Positions 1 through 21,145 of a stretch of DNA of 64,000 nt are shown here, piece by piece. A program made the translations under genes and the position numbers. The notes beneath the pieces were generated by a model that was given only the letters and a program-made list of their open reading frames with translations, searched no databases and had not been told where the DNA came from. Source of the DNA: a virus; the IMG/VR virus record IMGVR_UViG_3300043410_001024, positions 1 to 64,000 of that record; one strand, written 5' to 3'. The stretch's first letter is position 1. Every line of letters starts with the position of its first letter.

Positions 1-2
1 TT

Positions 3-59
3 GTGGGTATGGCGTTCGTAATGATCGCGGCAGTTTTACTGATTGATTTTATTAAATAA
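3..59 (+). CDS. 3' end of a gene entering from the left edge (hydrophobic C-terminus VGMAFVMIAAVLLIDFIK*)
   Basis: Open frame from the window edge to TAA 57-59, followed by a hairpin. Partial and short. Confidence 0.3.
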   Translation: MGMAFVMIAAVLLIDFIK

Positions 60-65
60 TACACT

Positions 66-111
66 GAAAACAGGCGCAAGCCGCGTCATTGCTGTGTTTG
101 TGCCTGTTTTC
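66..111 (+). terminator. Long imperfect hairpin after the edge ORF (possible terminator or processing stem)
   Basis: GAAAACAGGCGCAAGC (66-81) pairs with GTTTGTGCCTGTTTTC (96-111) using G-U pairs. Confidence 0.4.
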
Positions 112-179
112 GCCCCTGTTATCACGCTCCAGCGTTCGCCCCTGTTATCACGCTCCAGCGTTCGCCCCTGTTATCACGC
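109..179. repeat. 26-bp tandem repeat, 2.7 copies
   Basis: TTCGCCCCTGTTATCACGCTCCAGCG at 109-134 and 135-160, partial copy 161-179. Confidence 0.95.
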
Positions 180-325
180 CTAAGCGTTCAAAATTGCCCT
201 GTAAGCCCTGCAGGTGGTGCAATGGCATTGCTTTTTTGCTTTCGTGGCGTGGTGGTGGCTTAAAACGCAAATTCTAAATGCCAGCACGTTTTTAAAATTA
301 TTTTCATTTTTTTTCGTTTTGAGTA

Positions 326-398
326 TTGACACGGGCGAAAATGTCTGTAAAATACGCAGTCAGTGGGGGGCAATTTCGCCCCCCACATCAAACGGAGC
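326..398 (+). promoter_or_regulatory. Early promoter-stem-loop-RBS cassette 1
   Basis: TTGACA 326-331, 16 bp, TAAAAT 348-353; hairpin GTGGGGGGC-AATTTC-GCCCCCCAC 363-386; GGAG SD 394-397; A/T-rich UP-like tract upstream. Confidence 0.9.
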
Positions 399-405
399 AA
401 AAACA

Positions 406-663
406 ATGGCTAAATTATCAGATTCTTACACCACGCTCGTGCCAGCGAATATCGCTGGAATACCTTGCTTATTGGGCATTGACGATTTTTATCGTCAACC
501 CGCTGATTTTGGAGCGTGTAACCGTGATGATTTTTTTGGATACGTGGAACTTGAATTCACTGTAATGGATCGAAAAGGCTATAAAGCTGATTGGCTAGTT
601 AAAAAAATCACGCCAGTAATTGATCGTGAATTAGAAAAAACAGTTTTAGAATATTTCGCCTAA
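406..663 (+). CDS. Early hypothetical protein, 85 aa (MAKLSDSY...)
   Basis: ATG 406 follows the cassette SD. The ORF-track start at 214 runs through the promoter and is not credible. Confidence 0.8.
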   Translation: MAKLSDSYTTLVPANIAGIPCLLGIDDFYRQPADFGACNRDDFFGYVELEFTVMDRKGYKADWLVKKITPVIDRELEKTVLEYFA

Positions 664-668
664 AAGAG

Positions 669-736
669 TTGACAAGGCAAAACAAGTCTGTATAATAGGC
701 AATCAGTGGGGGGCAATTTCGCCCCCCACATCAAAC
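669..736 (+). promoter_or_regulatory. Early promoter-stem-loop cassette 2
   Basis: TTGACA 669-674, 16 bp, TATAAT 691-696; identical hairpin 706-729. Confidence 0.9.
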
Positions 737-749
737 AGGGGCAAAGAAA

Positions 750-968
750 ATGAAAGCAAAAAAAGTGGTAGAAAAAGCAATCAAACTAGGTTTAATCCGT
801 TATAATGACGGTGAGTCATTTTCACCGTTTTATGGTGCGGCACGTCATGACGTGTGGTTTTCATGCGGTGCGGGCGTGAATAAAACCATTGACGCTAATG
901 ACGTTGAACAATATACAGGGCTAAAAATCGTGTCAATCAATGGCGATAGCATCGAAAAATTAGTTTAA
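750..968 (+). CDS. Early hypothetical protein, 72 aa
   Basis: ORF exactly fills the space between cassettes 2 and 3. Confidence 0.75.
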   Translation: MKAKKVVEKAIKLGLIRYNDGESFSPFYGAARHDVWFSCGAGVNKTIDANDVEQYTGLKIVSINGDSIEKLV

Positions 969-974
969 AAACGG

Positions 975-1048
975 TTGACAAGGCAAAACAAGTCTGTATA
1001 ATACTCAATCAGTGGGGGGCAATTTCGCCCCCCACATCAAACGGAGCA
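975..1048 (+). promoter_or_regulatory. Early promoter-stem-loop-RBS cassette 3
   Basis: TTGACA 975-980, 16 bp, TATAAT 997-1002; hairpin 1012-1035; GGAG SD. Confidence 0.9.
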
Positions 1049-1052
1049 TAAA

Positions 1053-1358
1053 ATGAAAGCAAAAAGATTTTTTAATGGCAGTGACAGCTACGGGCGAAAT
1101 GTTCAAGTGGCGCAAGGCGTTGACGGTTCATGGTTTTATCGTATGTATGTATTCAACGGGTACGCCCGTGCATGGTCAAAATGGGATCAATTAGATACCG
1201 ATAAACATATATCATGGGCGCATGAATCAACCAACGTCTACAGCGGTGAAGTTACACCGCTAGAAAACCCCGTGTTAATGTGGGGGTTTAATTCATTACA
1301 TGAATACGCGGATGTTCCGCGCGTAAGATTGCCAGAAAAAAAAGAGTTGACAGTATAA
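1053..1358 (+). CDS. Early hypothetical protein, 101 aa, Trp/aromatic-rich
   Basis: SD-led ATG behind cassette 3; its last codons overlap the -35 of cassette 4. Confidence 0.8.
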   Translation: MKAKRFFNGSDSYGRNVQVAQGVDGSWFYRMYVFNGYARAWSKWDQLDTDKHISWAHESTNVYSGEVTPLENPVLMWGFNSLHEYADVPRVRLPEKKELTV

Positions 1359-1420
1359 AATAATCCTGTAAAATACGCAGTCAGTGGGGGGCAATTTCGC
1401 CCCCCACATCAAACGGAGCA
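1347..1420 (+). promoter_or_regulatory. Early promoter-stem-loop-RBS cassette 4
   Basis: TTGACA 1347-1352, 16 bp, TAAAAT 1369-1374; hairpin 1384-1407; GGAG SD. Confidence 0.9.
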
Positions 1421-1425
1421 TAAAA

Positions 1426-1953
1426 ATGAACAAACCAGATTTTTTAAACGTAATGGCATCAACAAAAGGCGCGGCTATCGCGTCAATGGTAACTGATACA
1501 GCGGTAGGTGGAGTTGCCGCTAAATATAAAGCAATGGCAATCCGTAAAGTAACTACAGCATCAATTATGCTTTTCAACGGGTTGAAGGATGCTGATCCGT
1601 ACCTAAACAAAATCGCTAAAACCAGTGACAGCGATAATGCTACCGATTTTGAAAAAAGCGAAACCTTCTTTGAGCATTCACATGAATGTTATAGTTTAGT
1701 AAGCCATAAAAAAACAGGCAAGTTATATTTGTACGCGCTTTATAATAGCGCAAAATCAACGTATTACATCGACGGCAAAGAAGTTACCCGTGATGAAGTA
1801 GCCATTTTCTTGACACCTTCAGCGGCTAAAACCTTAATGGATGATAGCGGCAGGGTATATAATCTTAAAAATGACGTTTATCATTCAGCTATCATTAGAA
1901 CGATTAGCCTTGAAAATGTCGTTAAATTGACCGCCAACGGTCAAACGATATAG
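1426..1953 (+). CDS. Early hypothetical protein, 175 aa (MNKPDFLNV...)
   Basis: ATG 1426 follows the cassette SD; the track start at 1384 is the hairpin's GTG. Confidence 0.8.
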   Translation: MNKPDFLNVMASTKGAAIASMVTDTAVGGVAAKYKAMAIRKVTTASIMLFNGLKDADPYLNKIAKTSDSDNATDFEKSETFFEHSHECYSLVSHKKTGKLYLYALYNSAKSTYYIDGKEVTRDEVAIFLTPSAAKTLMDDSGRVYNLKNDVYHSAIIRTISLENVVKLTANGQTI

Positions 1954-2017
1954 CGGCAATGGTAAGGGGGCGGGTAGACCGCCCTCGTGCTGTCACGGGC
2001 GTTTAAACGCGAATTTC

Positions 2018-2043
2018 AGCACGGGCGTTGCCCGTGCTTTTTT
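2018..2043 (+). terminator. Intrinsic terminator closing the early cassette array
   Basis: AGCACGGGC-GTT-GCCCGTGCT followed by a T run. Confidence 0.8.
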
Positions 2044-2078
2044 ATGCGTGGTGGTATGGTGTGGCACGGTAATTGACA

Positions 2079-2201
2079 ATGCAGGAATCGTGCCAACGGG
2101 GAGGCGTATCATATAAAAAAATATTTGTCAAATATTTTTTACGATGCAAAAATCGTGCCAACCGAAGGGGGGGTGGCGTATATATGCAAAAATCGTGCCA
2201 A
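2079..2201 (-). promoter_or_regulatory. Three tandem sigma54 (-24/-12) consensus sites
   Basis: Minus strand TTGGCACGATTCCTGCAT (2096-2079) and TTGGCACGATTTTTGCAT (2161-2144, 2201-2184), compared with the RpoN consensus YTGGCACG-N4-TTGCW. Confidence 0.65.
2116..2140. repeat. Perfect AT-rich inverted repeat
   Basis: AAAAAATATTTG-T-CAAATATTTTTT, between the first two sigma54-like sites. Confidence 0.9.
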
Positions 2202-2217
2202 CTTTTGTTGCGGCGGA

Positions 2218-2500
2218 CAAAAATTCTTTCAAAAAACTCCCTGATTTTTCCAAAAATTTCCACAAAAATTTCCACAAAAATTTCTCCAACTTTTCTCCCA
2301 ACTTTTCTCCAACTTTTCAAAAACTTTCCTAAAAACTTGCCTCAAAAAAGGTCGATATATAGAAAAACAGGTCGATCAAAGTGTAAGTACCTTCTTCTAA
2401 TTTTTTGCGCGGCTCAGGTTTTCACACTGTGTAGGAAAAGTGGGTCCAAAGTGTAAGTACCTTGTTGAAATTTTTGGGCGGGAAAAATTTTGCGCTCCGG
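2218..2500. repeat. Non-coding low-complexity region: periodic A/T tracts and direct repeats
   Basis: CAAAAATTTCCA and CCAACTTTTCT units with about 11-12 bp period and almost no G over 2220-2345; CAAAGTGTAAGTACCTT at 2377-2393 and 2447-2463. Confidence 0.85.
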
Positions 2501-2515
2501 TATAGAAAAAGTAGG

Positions 2516-2522
2516 CTAAATA
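2516..2522 (+). promoter_or_regulatory. Putative T4-type late promoter for the kinase cluster
   Basis: CTAAATA; the same (A/C)TAAATA motif precedes most structural genes in this window. Short and AT-rich, so it could be chance. Confidence 0.45.
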
Positions 2523-2603
2523 TGAAAGGGCACTAGAGAGAGTAAGGTACCATAATTGATGGTGTTTTACTCTAGTGAGTGTAGAGATATTAAAGGACTT
2601 TTG

Positions 2604-3302
2604 ATGAGAATAGAAGAATTAAGTGGATATCGTGATAATGAGTACATGCAGGGTGCAAAGGATATATTTAAGCAGCGTCCGGCTGATAATCCTGCAACTG
2701 GCGATGATGACATAATAGGCAAGTTAGATCCTAACAAGAGTAGTTTGGAATATGCGCCATATTATCAGATGATGCAATTTAACAAGTTTTTGACTGCTAA
2801 GGGATTTCGGCAATTGGGTTCTGGGGCGTATGCTGGTGTGTGGGAGCATCCTAATCATCCGTGGGTATTTAAGGTATTCAAGAATGATGAGGCGTATATG
2901 ACTTATTATAAGTGGTGTCGTTCTCACCAGAATAACCCTAATGTTCCTAAGATTAAGGGTGGTGTGATTAAGATAAATGATGAGACTTATGCCATACGGA
3001 TGGAAAAATTATCTCCGATAGACAAGGATGTATACAATGATGTTGATCGTGCGGTTGGAGCATTTGAGTGGTATGTACGTGGTATAAAGAAGGGATGGGA
3101 CGAGGAGACTATGGAACGTGTACGAGCTGAGTTAGAAGAATATCGTGAGGCGTATCCTGGTATATATGAGATAATGGCGATGATATTTAAGAGTGGATAT
3201 CGATTAGATTTGCATTTTAACAACATCATGCAGCGTGGTGATATTCCGGTAATCACTGATCCGATAGTAGGAAGTGGTTGGGGAACTAAGGTGGAAATAT
3301 GA
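2604..3302 (+). CDS. T7 gp0.7-like Ser/Thr protein kinase, paralog 1
   Basis: G-loop LGSGAYAGV, catalytic Lys in VFKVF, hinge MEKL, catalytic loop LDLHFNNIM, ITDP. ATG 2604 follows SD AAAGGA (MRIEELSGY). Confidence 0.85.
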   Translation: MRIEELSGYRDNEYMQGAKDIFKQRPADNPATGDDDIIGKLDPNKSSLEYAPYYQMMQFNKFLTAKGFRQLGSGAYAGVWEHPNHPWVFKVFKNDEAYMTYYKWCRSHQNNPNVPKIKGGVIKINDETYAIRMEKLSPIDKDVYNDVDRAVGAFEWYVRGIKKGWDEETMERVRAELEEYREAYPGIYEIMAMIFKSGYRLDLHFNNIMQRGDIPVITDPIVGSGWGTKVEI

Positions 3303-3907
3303 AACTACGGGAATTGACTGGGTATCATAATACGCCTATCCAGGGGATTGTTGATAAGGCCAAGGATGAGTTTAGTGGTGGTAAGAAGACCAGATATGAT
3401 GCTGCGTTTAACAATTTCTATGAGTATATAAAGCAGCATGGATTTCATCGTGTTGGCACTGGTAACAATGCTGATGTATATGAGAAGGAAGGATATCCGT
3501 GGTTGTTTAAGGTGTTTAGTGGTGATCCTGCGTATATGTCGTATTACAAGTATTGTAGGGTTAACCAGGGTAATCCGCATGTTCCGCGTATTAAGGGTGG
3601 GTTGCGTAAGATATCTGGGAATACGTATTGTGTACAGATAGAGAAGTTAAATCCGTTGCCTGGAAGTGGTATGAAGTTTGTTGAGACGTTACAGAATGCT
3701 GCGTTAGGCTTGGTGGATGATGATCCGTTTGATGATGAGATGGCGGATGAATATCGGCGTAGTATTTCTCAGATTAGTACAAAGTTTCCTGAGTTGATGA
3801 AGTTACTGCGGGATTTGGTTGCGTTTAGGAATTACACATTTGATTTAGATGAGAGTAATGTGATGATGCGTGGTGTGATGCCTGTAATAACAGATCCATT
3901 TGCGTGA
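3299..3907 (+). CDS. T7 gp0.7-like Ser/Thr protein kinase, paralog 2
   Basis: VGTGNNADV, LFKVF, IEKL, FDLDESNVM, ITDP; ATGA overlap with paralog 1. Confidence 0.85.
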   Translation: MKLRELTGYHNTPIQGIVDKAKDEFSGGKKTRYDAAFNNFYEYIKQHGFHRVGTGNNADVYEKEGYPWLFKVFSGDPAYMSYYKYCRVNQGNPHVPRIKGGLRKISGNTYCVQIEKLNPLPGSGMKFVETLQNAALGLVDDDPFDDEMADEYRRSISQISTKFPELMKLLRDLVAFRNYTFDLDESNVMMRGVMPVITDPFA

Positions 3908-3917
3908 GGGGAAATAG

Positions 3918-4526
3918 ATGAAATTAAAAGAGTTAACTGGATACAAGGGTAATGCGCATTATCAGGCGGCTAAGAATACATTGGTTAGAGATAATCCGGA
4001 GGATGAGAATCGCAAGCAGTTTAACAAGTTTAAGGAGTATATGGTTGCGAATGGATTCGAGTATATGGGGACTGGTGCGTATGGGACTGTATATGAGAAG
4101 CCTGGGTATCCGTGGTTATTTAAGTTATTTAAGGAAGATCCTGCGTATATAGAGTTTATCCAGTATAGTAAGGCGCATGCTGACAATCCTCATTTACCGA
4201 AGTTTAAGGGTGGTATAATAAGAATCAATGCTGATACTTATTGTATCCGGACTGAGAAATTAGTTGATTTACCGTATGAGAATTATAGAAAGTATATGGA
4301 TTATTTTACTGCGGTGTTTGCGGTACTACAAAACCGGGTTGACAAGAATGATTCGATGTATGATGAGTTGTATCGTGAGTATCAGCAGTTTAGTCGTAAG
4401 CATCCGAACATATATGAGATATTGAAATACATATTTACGGAAAGTTCGTACCATCCTGATTTGCACAATGGGAATTTAATGATGCGAGGGAGTACGTTAG
4501 TGTTTAGTGATCCGGTAGCGATATAG
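3918..4526 (+). CDS. T7 gp0.7-like Ser/Thr protein kinase, paralog 3
   Basis: MGTGAYGTV, LFKLF, TEKL, PDLHNGNLM, FSDP; SD GAGGGG. Confidence 0.85.
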   Translation: MKLKELTGYKGNAHYQAAKNTLVRDNPEDENRKQFNKFKEYMVANGFEYMGTGAYGTVYEKPGYPWLFKLFKEDPAYIEFIQYSKAHADNPHLPKFKGGIIRINADTYCIRTEKLVDLPYENYRKYMDYFTAVFAVLQNRVDKNDSMYDELYREYQQFSRKHPNIYEILKYIFTESSYHPDLHNGNLMMRGSTLVFSDPVAI

Positions 4527-4547
4527 CCCTCTTACGAGGGCTTTTTT
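4525..4547 (+). terminator. Intrinsic terminator after the kinase cluster
   Basis: AGCCCTC-TTAC-GAGGGCT followed by TTTTT, at the convergent junction. Confidence 0.8.
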
Positions 4548-5629
4548 ACGGGTTGTTGAAGTGCTGCTTGTCTAGCTTGCATATCGTTTGCTTGTGCGTC
4601 TGGGTTTCGGCTAATAGTAGGACCGATAGCTTTCCAGCCACGTTTTTGCATTAGTTGAGCTTGTTGTCTACCGTTTCTGAAACTTGGGTGATTCAAATCT
4701 TCTTCTGCGGACAGTGGGTCATTCGGGTGACCTAATTGGTATTTTAGGCCAGCGTTATGACCTGGGCAGTTTGGGTCGGTTGCATCAACACATGGATGGA
4801 AATCGTTTGGTCCTTTGGGTGGTTTTGGTCCATACCTAAAAAAACTTCCGTTTCCCATAGCTTCAACAATATCTTTATCGATTGATTCATAGATCTCATA
4901 CATGAAGTCATCTTCATCCCCATAGGTTACATTCTTTGCCATAACTAGGCCACCGATTTGAATAACTAGGTCAGCTTTGATAACTGGTTCTTGTGTTTTT
5001 CTATCGTAGAAATAAGAATGTCGTTCTGGGTCCATACCAACTTGAGTCCACTCTGGGTTGGATAATGCGTCTTGTGCGATTAATCTAGCTTGTTCTACGG
5101 TTGATGGGATGTATAAACCATTCATAGTAGCAAGTGGATTTTTATCTACTTTTTTACCTTTATCTGAGCGTCCCCTAGCGATATTCAGTGCACCTTTTTC
5201 TGGTACTTCAAACGTAACATTTTTAATAATAGCGGTGGATGCGTGTGCGATTGGATCACCAGATGCATTATGAATAGTTGGAATCCACACTCCCTTAGAT
5301 TTATAAGCTGGGATATCTAGTCTAAGTTTAACGGGTGTACCAGCTGGGATTTGTGTATTAAGTTTATCACGTTGGTTAACTTTCAGCGTGTTATACATGG
5401 TATCATCATCGGCGGATGGTGGTAGTTCATCATACGCCGACACTGGTTTATATTTGTTAACTAGACGACGATATTCGGTTTTATCAATTTCACCGTGCCG
5501 TAGTTTTTCGGCAGCCGCTGTTAATTGTGGAATACGGTCAGTAACGTTTTTGAAGTGTAGGTTACGTCTATCAGGTGCGACATAATCATCTTCTTCGGTA
5601 TTTTCGGTTAGAATGTCAAATATTTTCAT
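4532..5629 (-). CDS. Hypothetical protein, possible internal head (injected) protein
   Basis: 365-aa ORF; N-terminus MKIFDILTE resembles a capsid-targeting leader; globular core RLDIPAY...QVGMDPERHSYFYDR. Confidence 0.7.
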   Translation of the reverse strand: MKIFDILTENTEEDDYVAPDRRNLHFKNVTDRIPQLTAAAEKLRHGEIDKTEYRRLVNKYKPVSAYDELPPSADDDTMYNTLKVNQRDKLNTQIPAGTPVKLRLDIPAYKSKGVWIPTIHNASGDPIAHASTAIIKNVTFEVPEKGALNIARGRSDKGKKVDKNPLATMNGLYIPSTVEQARLIAQDALSNPEWTQVGMDPERHSYFYDRKTQEPVIKADLVIQIGGLVMAKNVTYGDEDDFMYEIYESIDKDIVEAMGNGSFFRYGPKPPKGPNDFHPCVDATDPNCPGHNAGLKYQLGHPNDPLSAEEDLNHPSFRNGRQQAQLMQKRGWKAIGPTISRNPDAQANDMQARQAALQQPVKKPS

Positions 5630-5637
5630 AATATTAT

Positions 5638-7008
5638 TTATATATTGTTCAACAGGTTTCTTAGTTTTGAGCTTTGGACTTCTGCGGTAACTTTTGGTTC
5701 TTCGATAGTGGATCTTTGTCTAATTGAGTTAAGAATAGCTGATCCTGCTGATTGCATAGGTTGGTTACCGAATTCATCATCAACGTCTGCGTCGGTGATT
5801 CTAAGTGAATCGATACAGAAAGATAAATCGATTTTTTGCCCTGTACCAGAACTATTACGAGTTTTCATAAGTTGAATTTGGTATTGTCCGCGTTCGCGCA
5901 TAGCTCTTGAGGTAAAGATACCGAATACGTTATCAGCTGTCATAATTTTAGAAAGACCGCCAGAGATATGGCTATGGTCGAATTCAACTTCTTCTACTGC
6001 GCCACGGTTTAGCTGAGATGCGGTGACTAATAAGCAATTCTTTTCTACTGCTAGGTTTCTAAGTTCTTCCGAGACGTACTTATCTTTGATGAAAAGGTCA
6101 GCTGGGCTGATTTTCTTCGAGAGTGGCATTAGCAAATCTAGGTAATCTACTAACAGTACATCAATTTTTCTATTAGTTTTTATTTCATATTCTTTTAAAT
6201 ATGATCTTACGTCATTGGCATTTTTGCCGGATGGCATATATTTGACTTGCAGTGACCCAGCTTTTTTACCGATGGTTTTAACTTTAAGTTCTACGTTATC
6301 GATTTGTTTAAAGATATCTCTGGATGGTATACCGGTAATCATGGAATCGATACGCATTGAGACTAGTTCTTCTGAGAGTTCTAGTGTAAGGTAAAGAACA
6401 TTAAGACCGGCTAGTGCCCAGTTAACGCCAAGATTTGCTAGGAATAGTGATTTACCTGCGCCAGAACCACCGGCAAAGATATTAAGTTCACCGCGATTCA
6501 TACCGCCGAAAAGTTTATCATCGACGTTTTTCCAGCCGGTTGATACTTGGCCATTTTTATCTTTGATTTTTGAAAGACGTTTTTTAGGGTCTTCGAAGTA
6601 ATCGGTACCCATATCTTTTTGTAGACCGACTTGGACTGCGCGTTTAATTTTATCTTCGACTGTACCGTATTCACCTTTTTCTAATAAATCGGCTGATTCG
6701 ATGATTGCGCGTTCTAGTCCTTTATGTCGGGTGAATGTTTCAAATTCGTTTAACAACCAATCAAAATTTTCTGCGCGTAAGTTAGCAGGTGGTGCAAAAT
6801 TAGCTTTGGTGGTTGCGTTTACGATTTCGAAGGTTGGGATTACATTATAGACATCAACATATTCTTTAATGAATTCTGCTGGTAATTGTAACTTTTTATC
6901 GAATAAAGTGTGGTCAAAAATTGATTGACATCTAACAAATGATTCTGGGTCCACTAGCATCATTTCTAGGTATAATTTTTGTACATCGAATCCATAATTT
7001 ACATTCAT
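5638..7008 (-). CDS. 41: DnaB-like replicative helicase (T4 gp41-like)
   Basis: Walker A AGGSGAGKS, LTLELSE, Walker B LLVDYLDL, TASQLNR, KTRN. Confidence 0.95.
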   Translation of the reverse strand: MNVNYGFDVQKLYLEMMLVDPESFVRCQSIFDHTLFDKKLQLPAEFIKEYVDVYNVIPTFEIVNATTKANFAPPANLRAENFDWLLNEFETFTRHKGLERAIIESADLLEKGEYGTVEDKIKRAVQVGLQKDMGTDYFEDPKKRLSKIKDKNGQVSTGWKNVDDKLFGGMNRGELNIFAGGSGAGKSLFLANLGVNWALAGLNVLYLTLELSEELVSMRIDSMITGIPSRDIFKQIDNVELKVKTIGKKAGSLQVKYMPSGKNANDVRSYLKEYEIKTNRKIDVLLVDYLDLLMPLSKKISPADLFIKDKYVSEELRNLAVEKNCLLVTASQLNRGAVEEVEFDHSHISGGLSKIMTADNVFGIFTSRAMRERGQYQIQLMKTRNSSGTGQKIDLSFCIDSLRITDADVDDEFGNQPMQSAGSAILNSIRQRSTIEEPKVTAEVQSSKLRNLLNNI

Positions 7009-7034: not shown

Positions 7035-8480
7035 TTAATTAAAAACTTTTACATTATAAGTATTTTCAAATACTTTAGAATCTCCTATGGTATTAACCAT
7101 TGGATGACCCTTAATATTCAGACTAGTATTGAGAAGCATTGGGCATCCGGTTTTAGAATACCACTCTTCCAATAGAGTTCTTACTTGTGGGTCGGCATTT
7201 TTTCCAACAGTTTGCACACGGCTGGTTCCATCAGCATGTACTATTCCTGGGAATTTATCTGGATATTTGCAAGTGGCGGTATATTGCATATATCGATTAT
7301 CGGTACTGATAAGGTCGAAATGTTCTGACGCGTGTTCCTCCAACACCATTGGTGCAAATGGACGAAATGCTTGTCTATCTTTAATTGTATTAACCCTATC
7401 TTTGATATTTGGTACACGCGGGTCAGCGATTAAGCTTCTGTTACCTAATGCGCGGGGTCCAAATTCTGCTTTACCTCTTGCTATACCACAAACTTGATTA
7501 GCGATAAGATATTCCACTATTTCTGCATTAGTGGAATGATACCCGATATCATATCCAATATATGGGTTAAACCGTATTCTATTTTTGGTATGTGCTAGCA
7601 CTGTTCCGATTGCGCTTCCTGCATCACCAGGATTTGGCATAATCCAAACATTATTAAAATATTTGTAAGCCAGTGGGTTGGCACTACAATTCAATGCGCA
7701 TCCACCCATGAATACTAAATTATCACTTGGAACTAGTTTTTTTGCCAGCTCTAGTGCATCTTTGAACATTCTATTATACACTAATTGTGTTCCAGATGCA
7801 ATATCAAAATAATCAGATACAGTTAAGTCTGGTGCCCAATCTAAGCAGCCACGGTGTAAATTCCGTCTAAACTTAAAATTATCAGCAACAAAATCGTCAT
7901 AGATGCGCTGTTCAAGTTTATTACCACCGTATGCTGCCATCCCCATTAAGATATATTCATCTTCGTTTGGTTTCAACCCAACTCGTTGAGTCATTGCGCT
8001 ATAAAACAGACCAATGCTATTGGGATAATTTTGAGACCATATTTTTTTTAATTTGTTTCCAGTACCATGCCAGATTGTCATGGTTTCAAATTCACCAATT
8101 GCGTCTATCACTAATATACAAGCATCAGCAAAGCTACTGGTATAATAGCCTGCAGCGGCGTGGCTATGATGATGTGCGGTATATGTAATTGGTACATTTA
8201 GATGATAAGTGGATAGATATTTTTTGATATTATTATCATCAAATTTTAATCCTTGCCCAGCTACTAGTTGTCTAATTGATTTAAGTAATGGGCGTTCATA
8301 CCAGTATATTTTTGATGGGTTTCCAAACTTAGATGCATAATTTATTAATTCATCACAAAGATTGGCATCATTTTTAATGCCGCTAAATCTTTCACTATGA
8401 CTAGCAAAAATCAAATTGTTGTTATCAAATACAGCAAGTGCGGCATCATGGCTATTTGCACTAATTCCCCATGTTATCAT
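7035..8480 (-). CDS. Carbamoyltransferase (NodU/CmcH/TobZ family)
   Basis: HDAALA, ERFS, HHHSHAA, DAIGE, EYILMGMAAYG, GGCALN, GDAGSAIG, EFGPRALGNRS, FRPFAP, HADGTSRVQTV, LLNTSLN. Confidence 0.95.
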   Translation of the reverse strand: MITWGISANSHDAALAVFDNNNLIFASHSERFSGIKNDANLCDELINYASKFGNPSKIYWYERPLLKSIRQLVAGQGLKFDDNNIKKYLSTYHLNVPITYTAHHHSHAAAGYYTSSFADACILVIDAIGEFETMTIWHGTGNKLKKIWSQNYPNSIGLFYSAMTQRVGLKPNEDEYILMGMAAYGGNKLEQRIYDDFVADNFKFRRNLHRGCLDWAPDLTVSDYFDIASGTQLVYNRMFKDALELAKKLVPSDNLVFMGGCALNCSANPLAYKYFNNVWIMPNPGDAGSAIGTVLAHTKNRIRFNPYIGYDIGYHSTNAEIVEYLIANQVCGIARGKAEFGPRALGNRSLIADPRVPNIKDRVNTIKDRQAFRPFAPMVLEEHASEHFDLISTDNRYMQYTATCKYPDKFPGIVHADGTSRVQTVGKNADPQVRTLLEEWYSKTGCPMLLNTSLNIKGHPMVNTIGDSKVFENTYNVKVFN

Positions 8481-19101: not shown

Positions 19102-19962
19102 TTATTTTATTTTTGCTAATTCTACAATTCTAGCTAAATTGTCTTTGTCTTTATATGAAATTGATTCATGATGTCCTGCACGTGACCCGCTAGCAATACT
19201 AAGTGCTTCCGGCTCTCCCGGATATTGCCGACCACTGCCTGGATTTTCATACTCAGCTTTTACTGCTGCAACATATTTTGGATCACGCATGCCTGTCATA
19301 CCGTGCGCTTTAGCTACTTTATCGTTGTTATATTCTGAATCAAACATTGAGCCAAAGTCTGGAAATTCATCAGGTGAAATTGGTGTTACTGATCCCGAAG
19401 GTTGTGCAGCAGGTGTTTGAGGTTGCGCTACCGGCCCAGAGTATTCAGGTGTTTCAGAAGGCATACCAGGACCGCCTAAATCTGCAGGTAACGGCGCATC
19501 AGGATTATTTTTTCTAAAACTAGCAATTTGATACTTCTTTAACAATTCTGGATTCTCATCGGCCATTGCTCCAAAGTTCCAAGTTTTAACATTTGGATCA
19601 GAAGAATCTAAGCCTGGTTCATTTGGATCTAAGTATTTAGTGCTATACGGTTCCTCTTTCCAGTCAGAATAATCTGGATCAACATCTTGCTCGTTAGGCT
19701 TAACCGGAGCTGCCGGTTGAGCTGCAGGCTGCGCGGTTGGCGTGTTCAGCGTTGCGGTTCTAGCAGCGGATTGTGCTTGCCAATCCATTGCTGCTTTGGT
19801 TTTAGGACCCATTATACCATCTGGTTTTAACGGGTATCCTTGTGCAATCAAATCTTGTTGTATTTTTAATACCGCCGGATCTGATTTAGCTTCCATCATA
19901 GCCATTTTCCCATTTAATCGATTGACCCTAGCAAGTAATGTTTTTTCGGTAATCTTTTTCAT
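19102..19962 (-). CDS. Low-complexity protein with peptidoglycan-binding-like domain; putative internal head protein
   Basis: VLKIQQDLIAQGYPLKPDGIMGPKT (PG_binding_1-like); N-term MKKITE; C-term LARIVELAKIK. Confidence 0.7.
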   Translation of the reverse strand: MKKITEKTLLARVNRLNGKMAMMEAKSDPAVLKIQQDLIAQGYPLKPDGIMGPKTKAAMDWQAQSAARTATLNTPTAQPAAQPAAPVKPNEQDVDPDYSDWKEEPYSTKYLDPNEPGLDSSDPNVKTWNFGAMADENPELLKKYQIASFRKNNPDAPLPADLGGPGMPSETPEYSGPVAQPQTPAAQPSGSVTPISPDEFPDFGSMFDSEYNNDKVAKAHGMTGMRDPKYVAAVKAEYENPGSGRQYPGEPEALSIASGSRAGHHESISYKDKDNLARIVELAKIK

Positions 19963-19966
19963 AGTT

Positions 19967-21145
19967 TTACAATCTTGCTAATTTTAAAATTCTGGATAGT
20001 TCATCTGATTCTTTGAATACTTGAACTTCCGATGATTTTTGAGGGGGTTCGTTAGCTGCTGGTGCCGCTGCTGGCGCAGGTGTCGCTGCTGGTGCCGCTG
20101 CTGGTGCAGGTTGTAAACTTTGAAAGTTTGGTGTAATAGCGGCGGCCGCTTGGTTAGCAACTGGTTGTGTACTTCCTGCTGTAACTGGTGGCGTCGTTGT
20201 ATCCGCGTTTACTTTTGCATTTGGGAACACTTGGTGAACTTTTTGTGCAATTACAGCCGGATCAGTTCCAAGTTTTTTCATTTGGGCAACATATTCATCG
20301 GCTGATTTTTGATTGGCAGCTGCATAATCTTGTTCAATTTTAGAATGATTATTGTATATAGAATCGTATGCTTCTTGGGTTTTTGGACCCCAAATACCAT
20401 CAACATTAAGTTTAGCACCTTTTGAATTTAAGTCTTGTTGAAGTGCCGCAACTTTTGGATTCATACCAGCACCACCGTGTCCACCACCGTGTCCACCAGT
20501 TTTTCCACCATGTTTTGCACCACCTTTTGGTTGTGCGGCGGTTTGACCTTTGGGCGGTGTTCCACCACTAGTTGCACCATTATATACACCAGATACAAAA
20601 TCGCCAACACCTTGTGCCATATTCGCTGCTGTTTTACCAACTCCTTGTCCAATATCACCTAAGTGATTTGCTGCATAACTTAAATCATCACCAACATTTG
20701 ATGCAAATTTGGTAATTGGATCATACCAATGCCCACTAGCATCTTGCGCTGGTTGTGCTGCGGTCGCACCTTGTTGTTTAGGTGGGGTTACAGGAGGCAG
20801 TGGGTTGTTAATAGCGTTGTCAACAACTCCACCTGGTATACCGCCTTGCGGTTGTATACGAGGACTTGTTTGTGTTGATGCAGGGTCAACTGGGAATGGT
20901 TTAACATTTCCAGATGGCGAATTTGTTCTCGATGGATCTGCATGACGCTCACCAGGTTTTACCGCCGATGGGAACATCAAGTTGTTGTTCGGGTTTTGAT
21001 CGCCACCGTATTGCCCTTGTGAGGGCGATGCTGGTGGATTAAGTTGTAACTCATTTGGGGATGGTTTAAGTGGTCCCGCCTCGTTCACCTTTGCACGAAG
21101 CTGTGCAACTCTATCTATTAATTGGCTTTCTGTAATTTTTTTCAT
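19967..21145 (-). CDS. Paralogous Pro/Gln/Gly-rich protein with peptidoglycan-binding-like domain; putative internal head protein
   Basis: VAALQQDLNSKGAKLNVDGIWGPKT; N-term MKKITE; C-term ESDELSRILKLARL. Confidence 0.7.
   Translation of the reverse strand: MKKITESQLIDRVAQLRAKVNEAGPLKPSPNELQLNPPASPSQGQYGGDQNPNNNLMFPSAVKPGERHADPSRTNSPSGNVKPFPVDPASTQTSPRIQPQGGIPGGVVDNAINNPLPPVTPPKQQGATAAQPAQDASGHWYDPITKFASNVGDDLSYAANHLGDIGQGVGKTAANMAQGVGDFVSGVYNGATSGGTPPKGQTAAQPKGGAKHGGKTGGHGGGHGGAGMNPKVAALQQDLNSKGAKLNVDGIWGPKTQEAYDSIYNNHSKIEQDYAAANQKSADEYVAQMKKLGTDPAVIAQKVHQVFPNAKVNADTTTPPVTAGSTQPVANQAAAAITPNFQSLQPAPAAAPAATPAPAAAPAANEPPQKSSEVQVFKESDELSRILKLARL

Follow-up and report, generated by a model that had tools for sequence, protein, structure and literature searches.

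Three tandem protein kinase genes near the start of the window, by which we mean the whole 64,000-nucleotide stretch analyzed here (the first 64 kb of the 99,681-bp IMG/VR contig IMGVR_UViG_3300043410_001024), may encode enzymes that travel inside a phage head. Each gene encodes a kinase of the T7 gp0.7 type (T7K) that opens with a five-residue tag resembling the clip-off propeptides of T4 head proteins. We put at about even the chance that these kinases are head cargo: they would be synthesized late, enter the head by means of their tags, lose those tags to the phage's S77 prohead protease, and pass with the DNA into the next host, where they would phosphorylate host and defense proteins at once. 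The sequence comparisons below provide partial support for this reading. A literature search found no paper on T4-type clip-off tags on T7-type kinases or on tandem arrays of such kinases.

We infer the timing of expression, the loading, cleavage, and injection of the kinases, and their activity and targets as follows. The operon would be read late, most likely by a gp55-type machinery and not from sigma70 early promoters. The tag would carry each kinase into the core of the assembling prohead, much as happens with the T4 propeptides found on Alt, gp24, and the internal proteins, and the phage's own gp21-type protease would cut it off after the Glu. The kinases would then ride in the head, enter the next host with the DNA, and could phosphorylate host and defense proteins ahead of any phage gene transcription.

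Three minimal kinases of the T7 gp0.7 type

The operon lies on the plus strand. Kinase 1 (2604-3302; 232 amino acids [aa]) begins with MRIEEL, within the leader MRIEELSGY, has the catalytic loop DLHFNN, and ends TDPIV...; its start codon was picked by homology to relatives and is preceded, 6 nt 5' of the ATG, by the Shine-Dalgarno (SD) sequence AAGGA. Kinase 2 (3299-3907; 202 aa) begins with MKLREL (leader MKLRELTGY) and has the loop DLDESN, and kinase 3 (3918-4526; 202 aa) begins with MKLKEL (leader MKLKELTGY) and has the loop DLHNGN. All three match phrog_15752 (E values of 1.4e-19, 3.3e-12, and 2.3e-11 for kinases 1, 2, and 3, respectively), and they are 35-40% identical to one another. Genes 1 and 2 share an ATGA overlap (3299-3302), genes 2 and 3 are separated by a 10-nt gap (3908-3917), and gene 2 has the SD sequence GGTGGA and gene 3 the SD sequence GGGGAA. 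Downstream, a terminator hairpin (4525-4542, plus strand) is common to the operon and to the convergent gene. A first description of this locus, the sequence-only reading, had proposed three tandem gp0.7-type paralogs with intact catalytic motifs, alike in their N-terminal leaders and organized as one operon ending in a terminator. The open reading frames (ORFs), the phrog_15752 matches, the alignments, and the gene junctions bear out each of these points.

The assignment to the T7K family is supported by both profile and structure comparisons. Aligned by hhalign with the T7-like kinases, the window's kinase family gave a probability of 99.8% (E value of 6.6e-27), and the nearest metagenomic homologues of the window kinases carry precomputed PF27024 annotations; a Pfam-A scan of the kinases gave no match in a copy of Pfam-A that is without PF27024. 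A profile search of PDB sequences returned only chance matches to PARP15 (E > 0.2). For kinase 3, an AF2 model based on 87 sequences reached a predicted local distance difference test score (pLDDT) of 94.4 and a predicted template modeling score (pTM) of 0.89, and that of kinase 2 adopts a protein-kinase-like fold with a pLDDT of 84. In a Foldseek search of BFVD, the kinase 3 model matched T7-like phage kinases (E values of 6e-11 to 1e-7, TM scores of 0.55-0.67). Its top 50 matches in VIA are all kinases, at middling Z scores of 5.1-6.8, and the Foldseek PDB and VIA matches are exclusively kinases or aminoglycoside kinases. The structural match to the gp0.7 kinase fold on which the sequence-only reading depended is therefore present.

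In alignments of 8 and of 87 family members, the G-loop, the β3 Lys, the D-x-x-x-x-N catalytic loop, and the D-P motif, which stands in place of DFG in this family, are invariant or nearly so. Among the 87 sequences, G51/G53, K69, D181, N186, and D198-P199 show either no variation or at least 97% conservation, and all of them are present in the three window copies. The window kinases end 3-15 residues past the D-P motif, and T7-like kinases reach 359-373 aa; stopping where they do, the window proteins lack the DNA-binding shut-off domain of T7, in line with the earlier description of a kinase domain alone. We conclude that the three genes probably encode active, minimal Ser/Thr(/Tyr) protein kinases of the T7 gp0.7 type, consisting of the kinase module only. 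As the sequence-only reading proposed, the contrast between the DLDESN and DLHxxN loops might give the copies different substrate sets.

A short N-terminal tag on kinases and unrelated proteins

The tag follows the pattern M-[KR]-[IL]-x-E, then L, and its window copies read MRIEE-L, MKLRE-L, and MKLKE-L. Among the 87 family members, Met1 and Glu5 are kept in 86 each, Ile/Leu3 in 84, and Leu6 in 81, so that conservation of the tag residues matches that of the catalytic Lys and Asp. In the kinase 3 model, residues 1-10 form the least confident part (mean pLDDT of 70, versus 96 for residues 11-20). Synonymous codons vary among the three kinase genes, which indicates that the constraint acts at the protein level. 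The differing codons, together with the SD sequences on genes 2 and 3 and the retention of the tag in the internal units of fused proteins, led us to reject the idea that the tag is an mRNA signal for leaderless translation. Another candidate, the I-N-E-L at residues 18-21 of T7-like kinases, was rejected as an equivalent of the tag: hhalign pairs the R-x-x-P of T7 with a K-x-x-P of the family that lies downstream of the tag, and the T7-like kinases are therefore without an I-x-E-L tag.

Longer tags occur elsewhere in the family. MKTFSDFITE-L, MRATEFITE-L, and MRINEIITE-L are near-copies of the T4 capsid targeting sequence (CTS), MKTYQEFIAE (PMC8442874), and MKTFSDFITE and MRATEFITE do fit it in length and in targeting residues. 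The second kinase of Rhizobium phage RHph_I1_18 has a ten-residue N-terminal tag ending in IAE. Moreover, the tag also opens family members that begin with a domain other than a kinase (for example, P0072, P0018, and P0011).

The tag is also found on proteins unrelated to the kinases. In the contig, MILRELFY begins the core protein encoded at the gp67 position, and a late protein of 299 aa opens with MKINEL. The pattern is best examined in G002, a complete 518,643-bp relative with terminal repeats, an S77 protease, and a kinase triplet, where it stands at the start of 31 of 664 ORFs, compared with 22 of 3312 internal Met positions (p = 1e-16). None of these 31 tagged ORFs has a sigma70 site within 120 nt, and ten have the late motif directly upstream, which is an enrichment (p = 0.003). 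The identical tag MKLNDLFE occurs in G002 on a kinase and on a non-homologous cytidylyltransferase-like protein. Likewise, MRATEFINE, MKANEFINE, and MRASEFIVE head unrelated proteins (58 aa, 249 aa, and a protein with multiple helix-turn-helix domains), and MQINDILTE heads a protein with a weak ADP-ribosyltransferase match.

The protease that would cut such tags is encoded in the same contig. An S77 gp21-type prohead protease gene (contig 72442-73068, minus strand; PF03420, 85.9 bits; phrog_207, E value of 1.4e-57) lies in a head module with the T4 gene order: portal, gp67-position small protein, gp68-like acidic protein, S77 protease, scaffold, and major capsid protein. The gp21-type head protease required by the sequence-only reading is thus found. 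A gp55-like late sigma factor is encoded at contig 86352-87182, and the contig further encodes a contractile sheath, a tail tube, a large terminase, UvsX, a gp32-type single-stranded DNA-binding protein, DnaB, and a primase. The phage is a T4-related jumbo myophage. Since the contig is rated 27% complete, it would be a fragment of a jumbo phage whose whole genome measures roughly 370 kb. The earlier label of a T4-like myophage is right only in the broad sense; the large terminase shows 53% identity to its counterpart in Pseudomonas phage PA5oct.

Further genes carry the tag or stand near those that do. The convergent neighbor of the kinase operon (4532-5629, minus strand) encodes a 365-aa protein that starts MKIFDILTE and has a weak L5 gp82-like match; it is a candidate for tagged head cargo. 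BLASTP detected no significant similarity between this protein and the like-tagged MQINDILTE protein of G002, and a search of a protein atlas with the neighbor returned nothing above 0.78. Two paralogs of the window, at 19102-19962 and 19967-21145 (both on the minus strand), start MKKITE and have weak matches of endolysin or peptidoglycan-binding type (phrog_2649); their genes lie immediately downstream of one for a virion structural protein, and both may therefore belong to the tagged cargo as well. In G002, a cluster of tagged genes at 198961-210788 (loci L043-L044) looks like a locus of cargo enzymes, since its products include a nucleotidyltransferase of the Pol-beta type, a protein resembling cytidylyltransferases, and another that matches GNAT weakly. 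Apart from the tag, the window also encodes a NodU/CmcH-type carbamoyltransferase (7035-8480, minus strand; phrog_1601, E value of 4e-94) between the primase and helicase genes.

Promoter motifs and expression timing

The kinase operon is preceded by GCTAAATA (2515-2522, plus strand), a late-promoter-like motif located 81 nt 5' of the ATG at 2604 and a variant of NATAAATA; the CTAAATA noticed earlier is indeed there, at 2516-2522. In the contig, NATAAATA stands 17-42 nt 5' of the sheath, terminase, fiber, hub, and other structural genes, and the variant ACTAAATA stands 18-20 nt 5' of the terminase gene and two other late genes. Their placement before structural genes, together with the gp55-like sigma factor, assigns these motifs to the T4-type late promoter class. 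A second layout exists in the contig, in which the motif lies 4-5 nt before an ATG that has no SD sequence. It is found at the convergent neighbor, a virion protein gene, and the gp67-position gene.

Relatives place such motifs closer to their kinase genes. In a comparison of 19 related viral loci, NNTAAATA lies upstream of 11 of 16 first genes of kinase operons and of about 31 of 181 other ORFs (p = 2.5e-5), mostly at a spacing of 5 nt before the kinase genes. The closest relative, whose protein is 82% identical to kinase 2, carries GATAAATA and AATAAATA at 25 and 22 nt before its two kinase genes. Across the related loci, the spacing from motif to ATG is bimodal, with values of 4-7 and 16-27 nt.

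The close-spaced class is an observation in its own right. Genes with NNTAAATA 4-7 nt before the ATG and no SD sequence occur in the window at 5635-5642 (minus strand) and at about 23243 (minus strand), in the contig at 74371 (minus strand), and 21 times in G002. The first of these sites is TATAAATA (5635-5642, minus strand), 5 nt before the ATG of the convergent neighbor, which has no SD sequence and hence a leaderless late-type layout. If NNTAAATA acts at this distance as a T4-type late promoter, transcription would start at or beside the AUG, and these genes would give rise to leaderless late mRNAs.

Upstream of the kinases, positions 326-1953 hold four one-gene cassettes, each with a TTGACA-16-TA(T/A)AAT promoter, an identical 24-nt hairpin, and a ribosome-binding site. 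The sigma70 promoters of these four small genes are perfect or near-perfect, and we take the region to be an array of early cassettes by its sequence signals. An intrinsic terminator with a 9-bp GC-rich stem and a T-run (2018-2038, plus strand) divides it from the kinase operon, and a gene-free spacer of 560 nt follows. No sigma70 consensus was found in this spacer (2040-2603), where the best match reaches 9 of 12 positions, in agreement with the sequence-only reading.

The spacer has several features of its own. ATCGTGCCAAC occurs three times at 2087-2202; its reverse complement, on the minus strand, is TGGCAC-N5-TTGCA, the sigma54 consensus, and faces away from the kinases. A weaker forward sigma54-like copy, TGGCACGGTAATTGAC, lies at about 2063-2078 (plus strand) and faces them. 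At 2244-2333 and 2377-2475 lie runs of 12-nt repeats of the ATTTCCACAAAA and CAACTTTTCTCC types and two 29-nt repeats that contain GTAAGTACC, and a third variant, GTAAGGTACC, forms the loop-proximal stem of a hairpin in the predicted 5' leader of the kinase mRNA. None of these spacer repeats occurs elsewhere in the contig. The leader hairpin, at 2531-2577 (plus strand), is predicted to be stable: the fold of 2528-2612 has an energy of -23.5 kcal/mol (z score of -3.86), and none of 200 shuffled sequences was as stable. An Rfam scan of window positions 1-6000 gave no match.

Kinase arrays, known systems, and rival readings

The kinase family is large, with 4,710 clusters at an E value of 0.001 and 172 at 1e-30, and its copies occur singly, in tandem, or fused. 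The survey of copy number in relatives that the sequence-only reading had suggested thus yields arrays of one to six units. The longest fusion is a single ORF of 1249 aa (L011:5998-9747, and the same in L017) made of six T7-type kinase units, each of which opens with [IL]-x-E-L-x-G-Y-K after an acidic linker bearing a second [LM]-x-E; ACTAAATA lies 7 nt before the start of this ORF in L011. Other fused proteins have five, four, or three kinase units. The metagenomic protein P0014 (1769 aa), which starts MLLSEL, joins three kinase units to a C-terminal phosphodiesterase of the Acb1 type (PF23474, E value of 2.8e-23), directed against the cyclic-oligonucleotide-based antiphage signaling system (CBASS). 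In the family tree, the three window kinases come out as old, diverged copies. Kinase 2 has an ortholog among the copies of the closest relative, two other phages have triplets that are pairwise orthologous, and the six fused units are a lineage-specific expansion. Orthologous triplets alongside a lineage-specific expansion indicate that the kinase arrays expanded repeatedly. The kinase 2 lineage itself is well kept, with metagenomic homologues at 81-97% identity and preservation at 67-97% across samples.

Two cultured, T4-like carriers are Pseudomonas phage Astolliot (L006 and L032), with five family kinases in two clusters, and Rhizobium phage RHph_I1_18 (L007), with two in tandem. Searched by tblastn with kinase 3, the Rhizobium kinase, and one of the long family members, a set of 50,697 phage records yielded only a few distant cultured carriers, for none of which a virion proteome was found. 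These data lead us to a wider proposal, which we hold tentatively, at a shade under even probability. T4-related jumbo phages may load arrays of one to six T7-type kinase units, as separate genes or as polyproteins cut at the same tag, into the capsid by means of interchangeable clip-off tags, beside nucleotidyltransferases and other modifying enzymes. Promiscuous phosphorylation of host and defense proteins would then start at DNA entry, ahead of phage transcription, and the repeated expansions would reflect an arms race over substrate range.

The closest known enzyme is T7 gp0.7 itself (phrog_15752/phrog_2828; PF27024), which disarms bacterial defense systems by mass phosphorylation (PMC13645617). 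The window kinases share its family, fold, G-loop, β3 Lys, D-x4-N loop, and D-P for DFG. Unlike it, they have no C-terminal shut-off domain, apparently do not belong to a sigma70 early operon, occur as three diverged tandem copies in a T4-related jumbo myophage, and carry the tag; T7-like kinases sit in sigma70 early operons and are untagged. Kinase-only homologues of T7K have been noted in the jumbophages Munch, which infects Salmonella, and G17, an Escherichia phage, where the Val of DPV is not conserved and no function was assigned (PMC13645617). These resemble the window kinases in lacking further domains and in their giant myophage setting, but Munch has a single kinase gene, which belongs to an operon of small ORFs under a sigma70 promoter and whose product opens with MTKQEIF and has no tag.

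For packaging, the T4 ADP-ribosyltransferase Alt is the model of a host-modifying enzyme that is produced late, taken up by the prohead, cut there by gp21, and then injected. Alt and gp24 are gp21-trimmed head proteins, and T4 propeptides measure 7-65 aa (T4 review). Alt starts MELITE-LF and gp24 starts MAKINELLRE-S (both read from NC_000866), so that Alt has the I-x-E-L shape of the kinase tags. The fold and chemistry of Alt are different from those of the window kinases, and its packaging and cleavage are experimental findings, whereas those of the window kinases are proposed from sequence. The kinase tags further resemble the T4 CTS, a portable N-terminal element ending in I-x-E that is placed on unrelated proteins and cut off in T4 by the S77 protease; near-copies of it are MKTFSDFITE and MRATEFITE in the family and MRATEFINE in G002. 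They differ from it in the length and targeting residues of the window copies and in that the candidate cargo consists of enzymes and not of small basic proteins.

Enzymes of related kinds have been found or predicted in virions. Mass spectrometry detected kinase-like proteins and a cytidylyltransferase in the virions of the T4-like cyanophages S-CRM01, S-TIM5, S-CBWM1, and S-CREM2 (PMC10665884). These kinases differ from ours in being described as APH/ChoK/Rio-type, and the part of that report used here describes no tag or processing for them; in S-CRM01, we found no member of the kinase family at an E value of 0.01. Polyvalent proteins, in turn, are predicted to be packaged and injected as multi-enzyme proteins with kinases, ADP-ribosyltransferases (ARTs), GNATs, and Pol-beta nucleotidyltransferases (Iyer et al. 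2017, PMC5512222, in the portion considered here). Relatives of the window kinases are similar to them in fusing two to six kinase units, or kinases and Acb1, unlike the three separate genes of the window. The polyvalent kinase clade is without a C-terminal subdomain and comes from other host lineages, and no T4-type tag is described in that portion of the account (PMC5512222).

Several observations weigh against the kinases being head cargo. The motif GCTAAATA differs from NATAAATA at the second position and is a weak variant, and its distance of 81 nt from the ATG contrasts with 17-42 or 4-5 nt for the late genes of the contig; read-through from the four strong early promoters, or the weak sigma54-like site at about 2063-2078, could also drive the operon. 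The five-residue window tags are shorter than any T4 propeptide and have no aromatic residues at positions 4 and 7, the residues that target the T4 CTS. The conserved block extends past the proposed cut (G8, Y9, K10, P13, and Y15) into a confidently folded helix, and the motif persists within fused arrays and after long N-terminal domains, which is what one would expect of a structural element, although within the arrays it fits cleavage sites and a structural role equally well. In addition, kinase 2 has an Asp in place of the family His in its catalytic loop. The earlier claims of late expression and of capsid targeting consequently survive in part. For the former, late-type motifs do precede the kinase genes of relatives, but the window's own motif is weak and distant. 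For the latter, the tag is conserved, portable, and similar to the propeptides that T4 has on Alt, gp24, and its internal proteins, but it is short and devoid of the T4 targeting residues.

Much of this would be explained if the kinases were ordinary cytoplasmic enzymes acting like T7 gp0.7, expressed early or delayed-early through read-through of the 2018-2038 terminator or from an unrecognized middle promoter, with the N-terminal block being a part of the kinase module, such as a docking or autophosphorylation element (T-G-Y, for example). The operon lies directly 3' of the early cassette array and shares its strand, the genes for T7K and the Munch kinase are early, and the block runs into a folded helix and is kept in internal units and after long N-terminal domains; the weak promoter evidence in the window and the short tag point the same way. 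We regard this reading as the main rival but less likely than head cargo, because a strong terminator and the 560-nt spacer separate the early genes from the kinases, late-type motifs directly precede kinase genes in relatives, and the T7-like kinases are without the I-x-E-L element. Furthermore, related or identical tags head non-homologous proteins, the gp67-position core protein, and proteins with a non-kinase first domain. The late-type motifs in relatives and their enrichment before tagged genes would also suit kinases that are made late and remain unpackaged, with a cytoplasmic role, for instance against defenses that sense late proteins or in regulating assembly, the tag serving chaperone recognition or the control of turnover. 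This is unlikely in our judgment: the tag agrees both with the rule by which the phage's head protease cuts and with the propeptides on T4 proteins known to be head cargo, it is present on the gp67-position prohead-core protein, and the enzymes that carry it (kinase, nucleotidyltransferases, and weak matches to GNAT and ART) mirror those found or predicted in virions (PMC10665884, PMC5512222). 

Finally, one or more copies might be inactive pseudokinases acting as decoys or scaffolds. Kinase 2, with DLDESN, is the main candidate, since it and its orthologues carry Asp for the family His, where classical kinases have their catalytic-loop Lys. A D-x-x-D-S-N loop of similar kind is used by aminoglycoside kinases, which speaks against inactivity, as do the catalytic Asp, the Asn, the Mg-binding Asp-Pro, the β3 Lys, and the G-loop, intact in all three copies, and the maintenance of the kinase 2 lineage across samples. 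We consider this very improbable.

If the kinases are indeed head cargo, the consequences concern the earliest moments of infection. T7K must be made after entry, whereas a capsid-borne kinase would act before the host senses or cuts the incoming DNA. The principle of T4 Alt and the internal proteins would widen from a handful of proteins to a kinase payload, and the short tags would offer a practical means of bringing foreign proteins into the heads of giant phages. The cultured carriers, Rhizobium phage RHph_I1_18 and Otagovirus phages, make the idea directly testable. Given the size of the family, such kinases would form a broad candidate layer of phage counter-defense.

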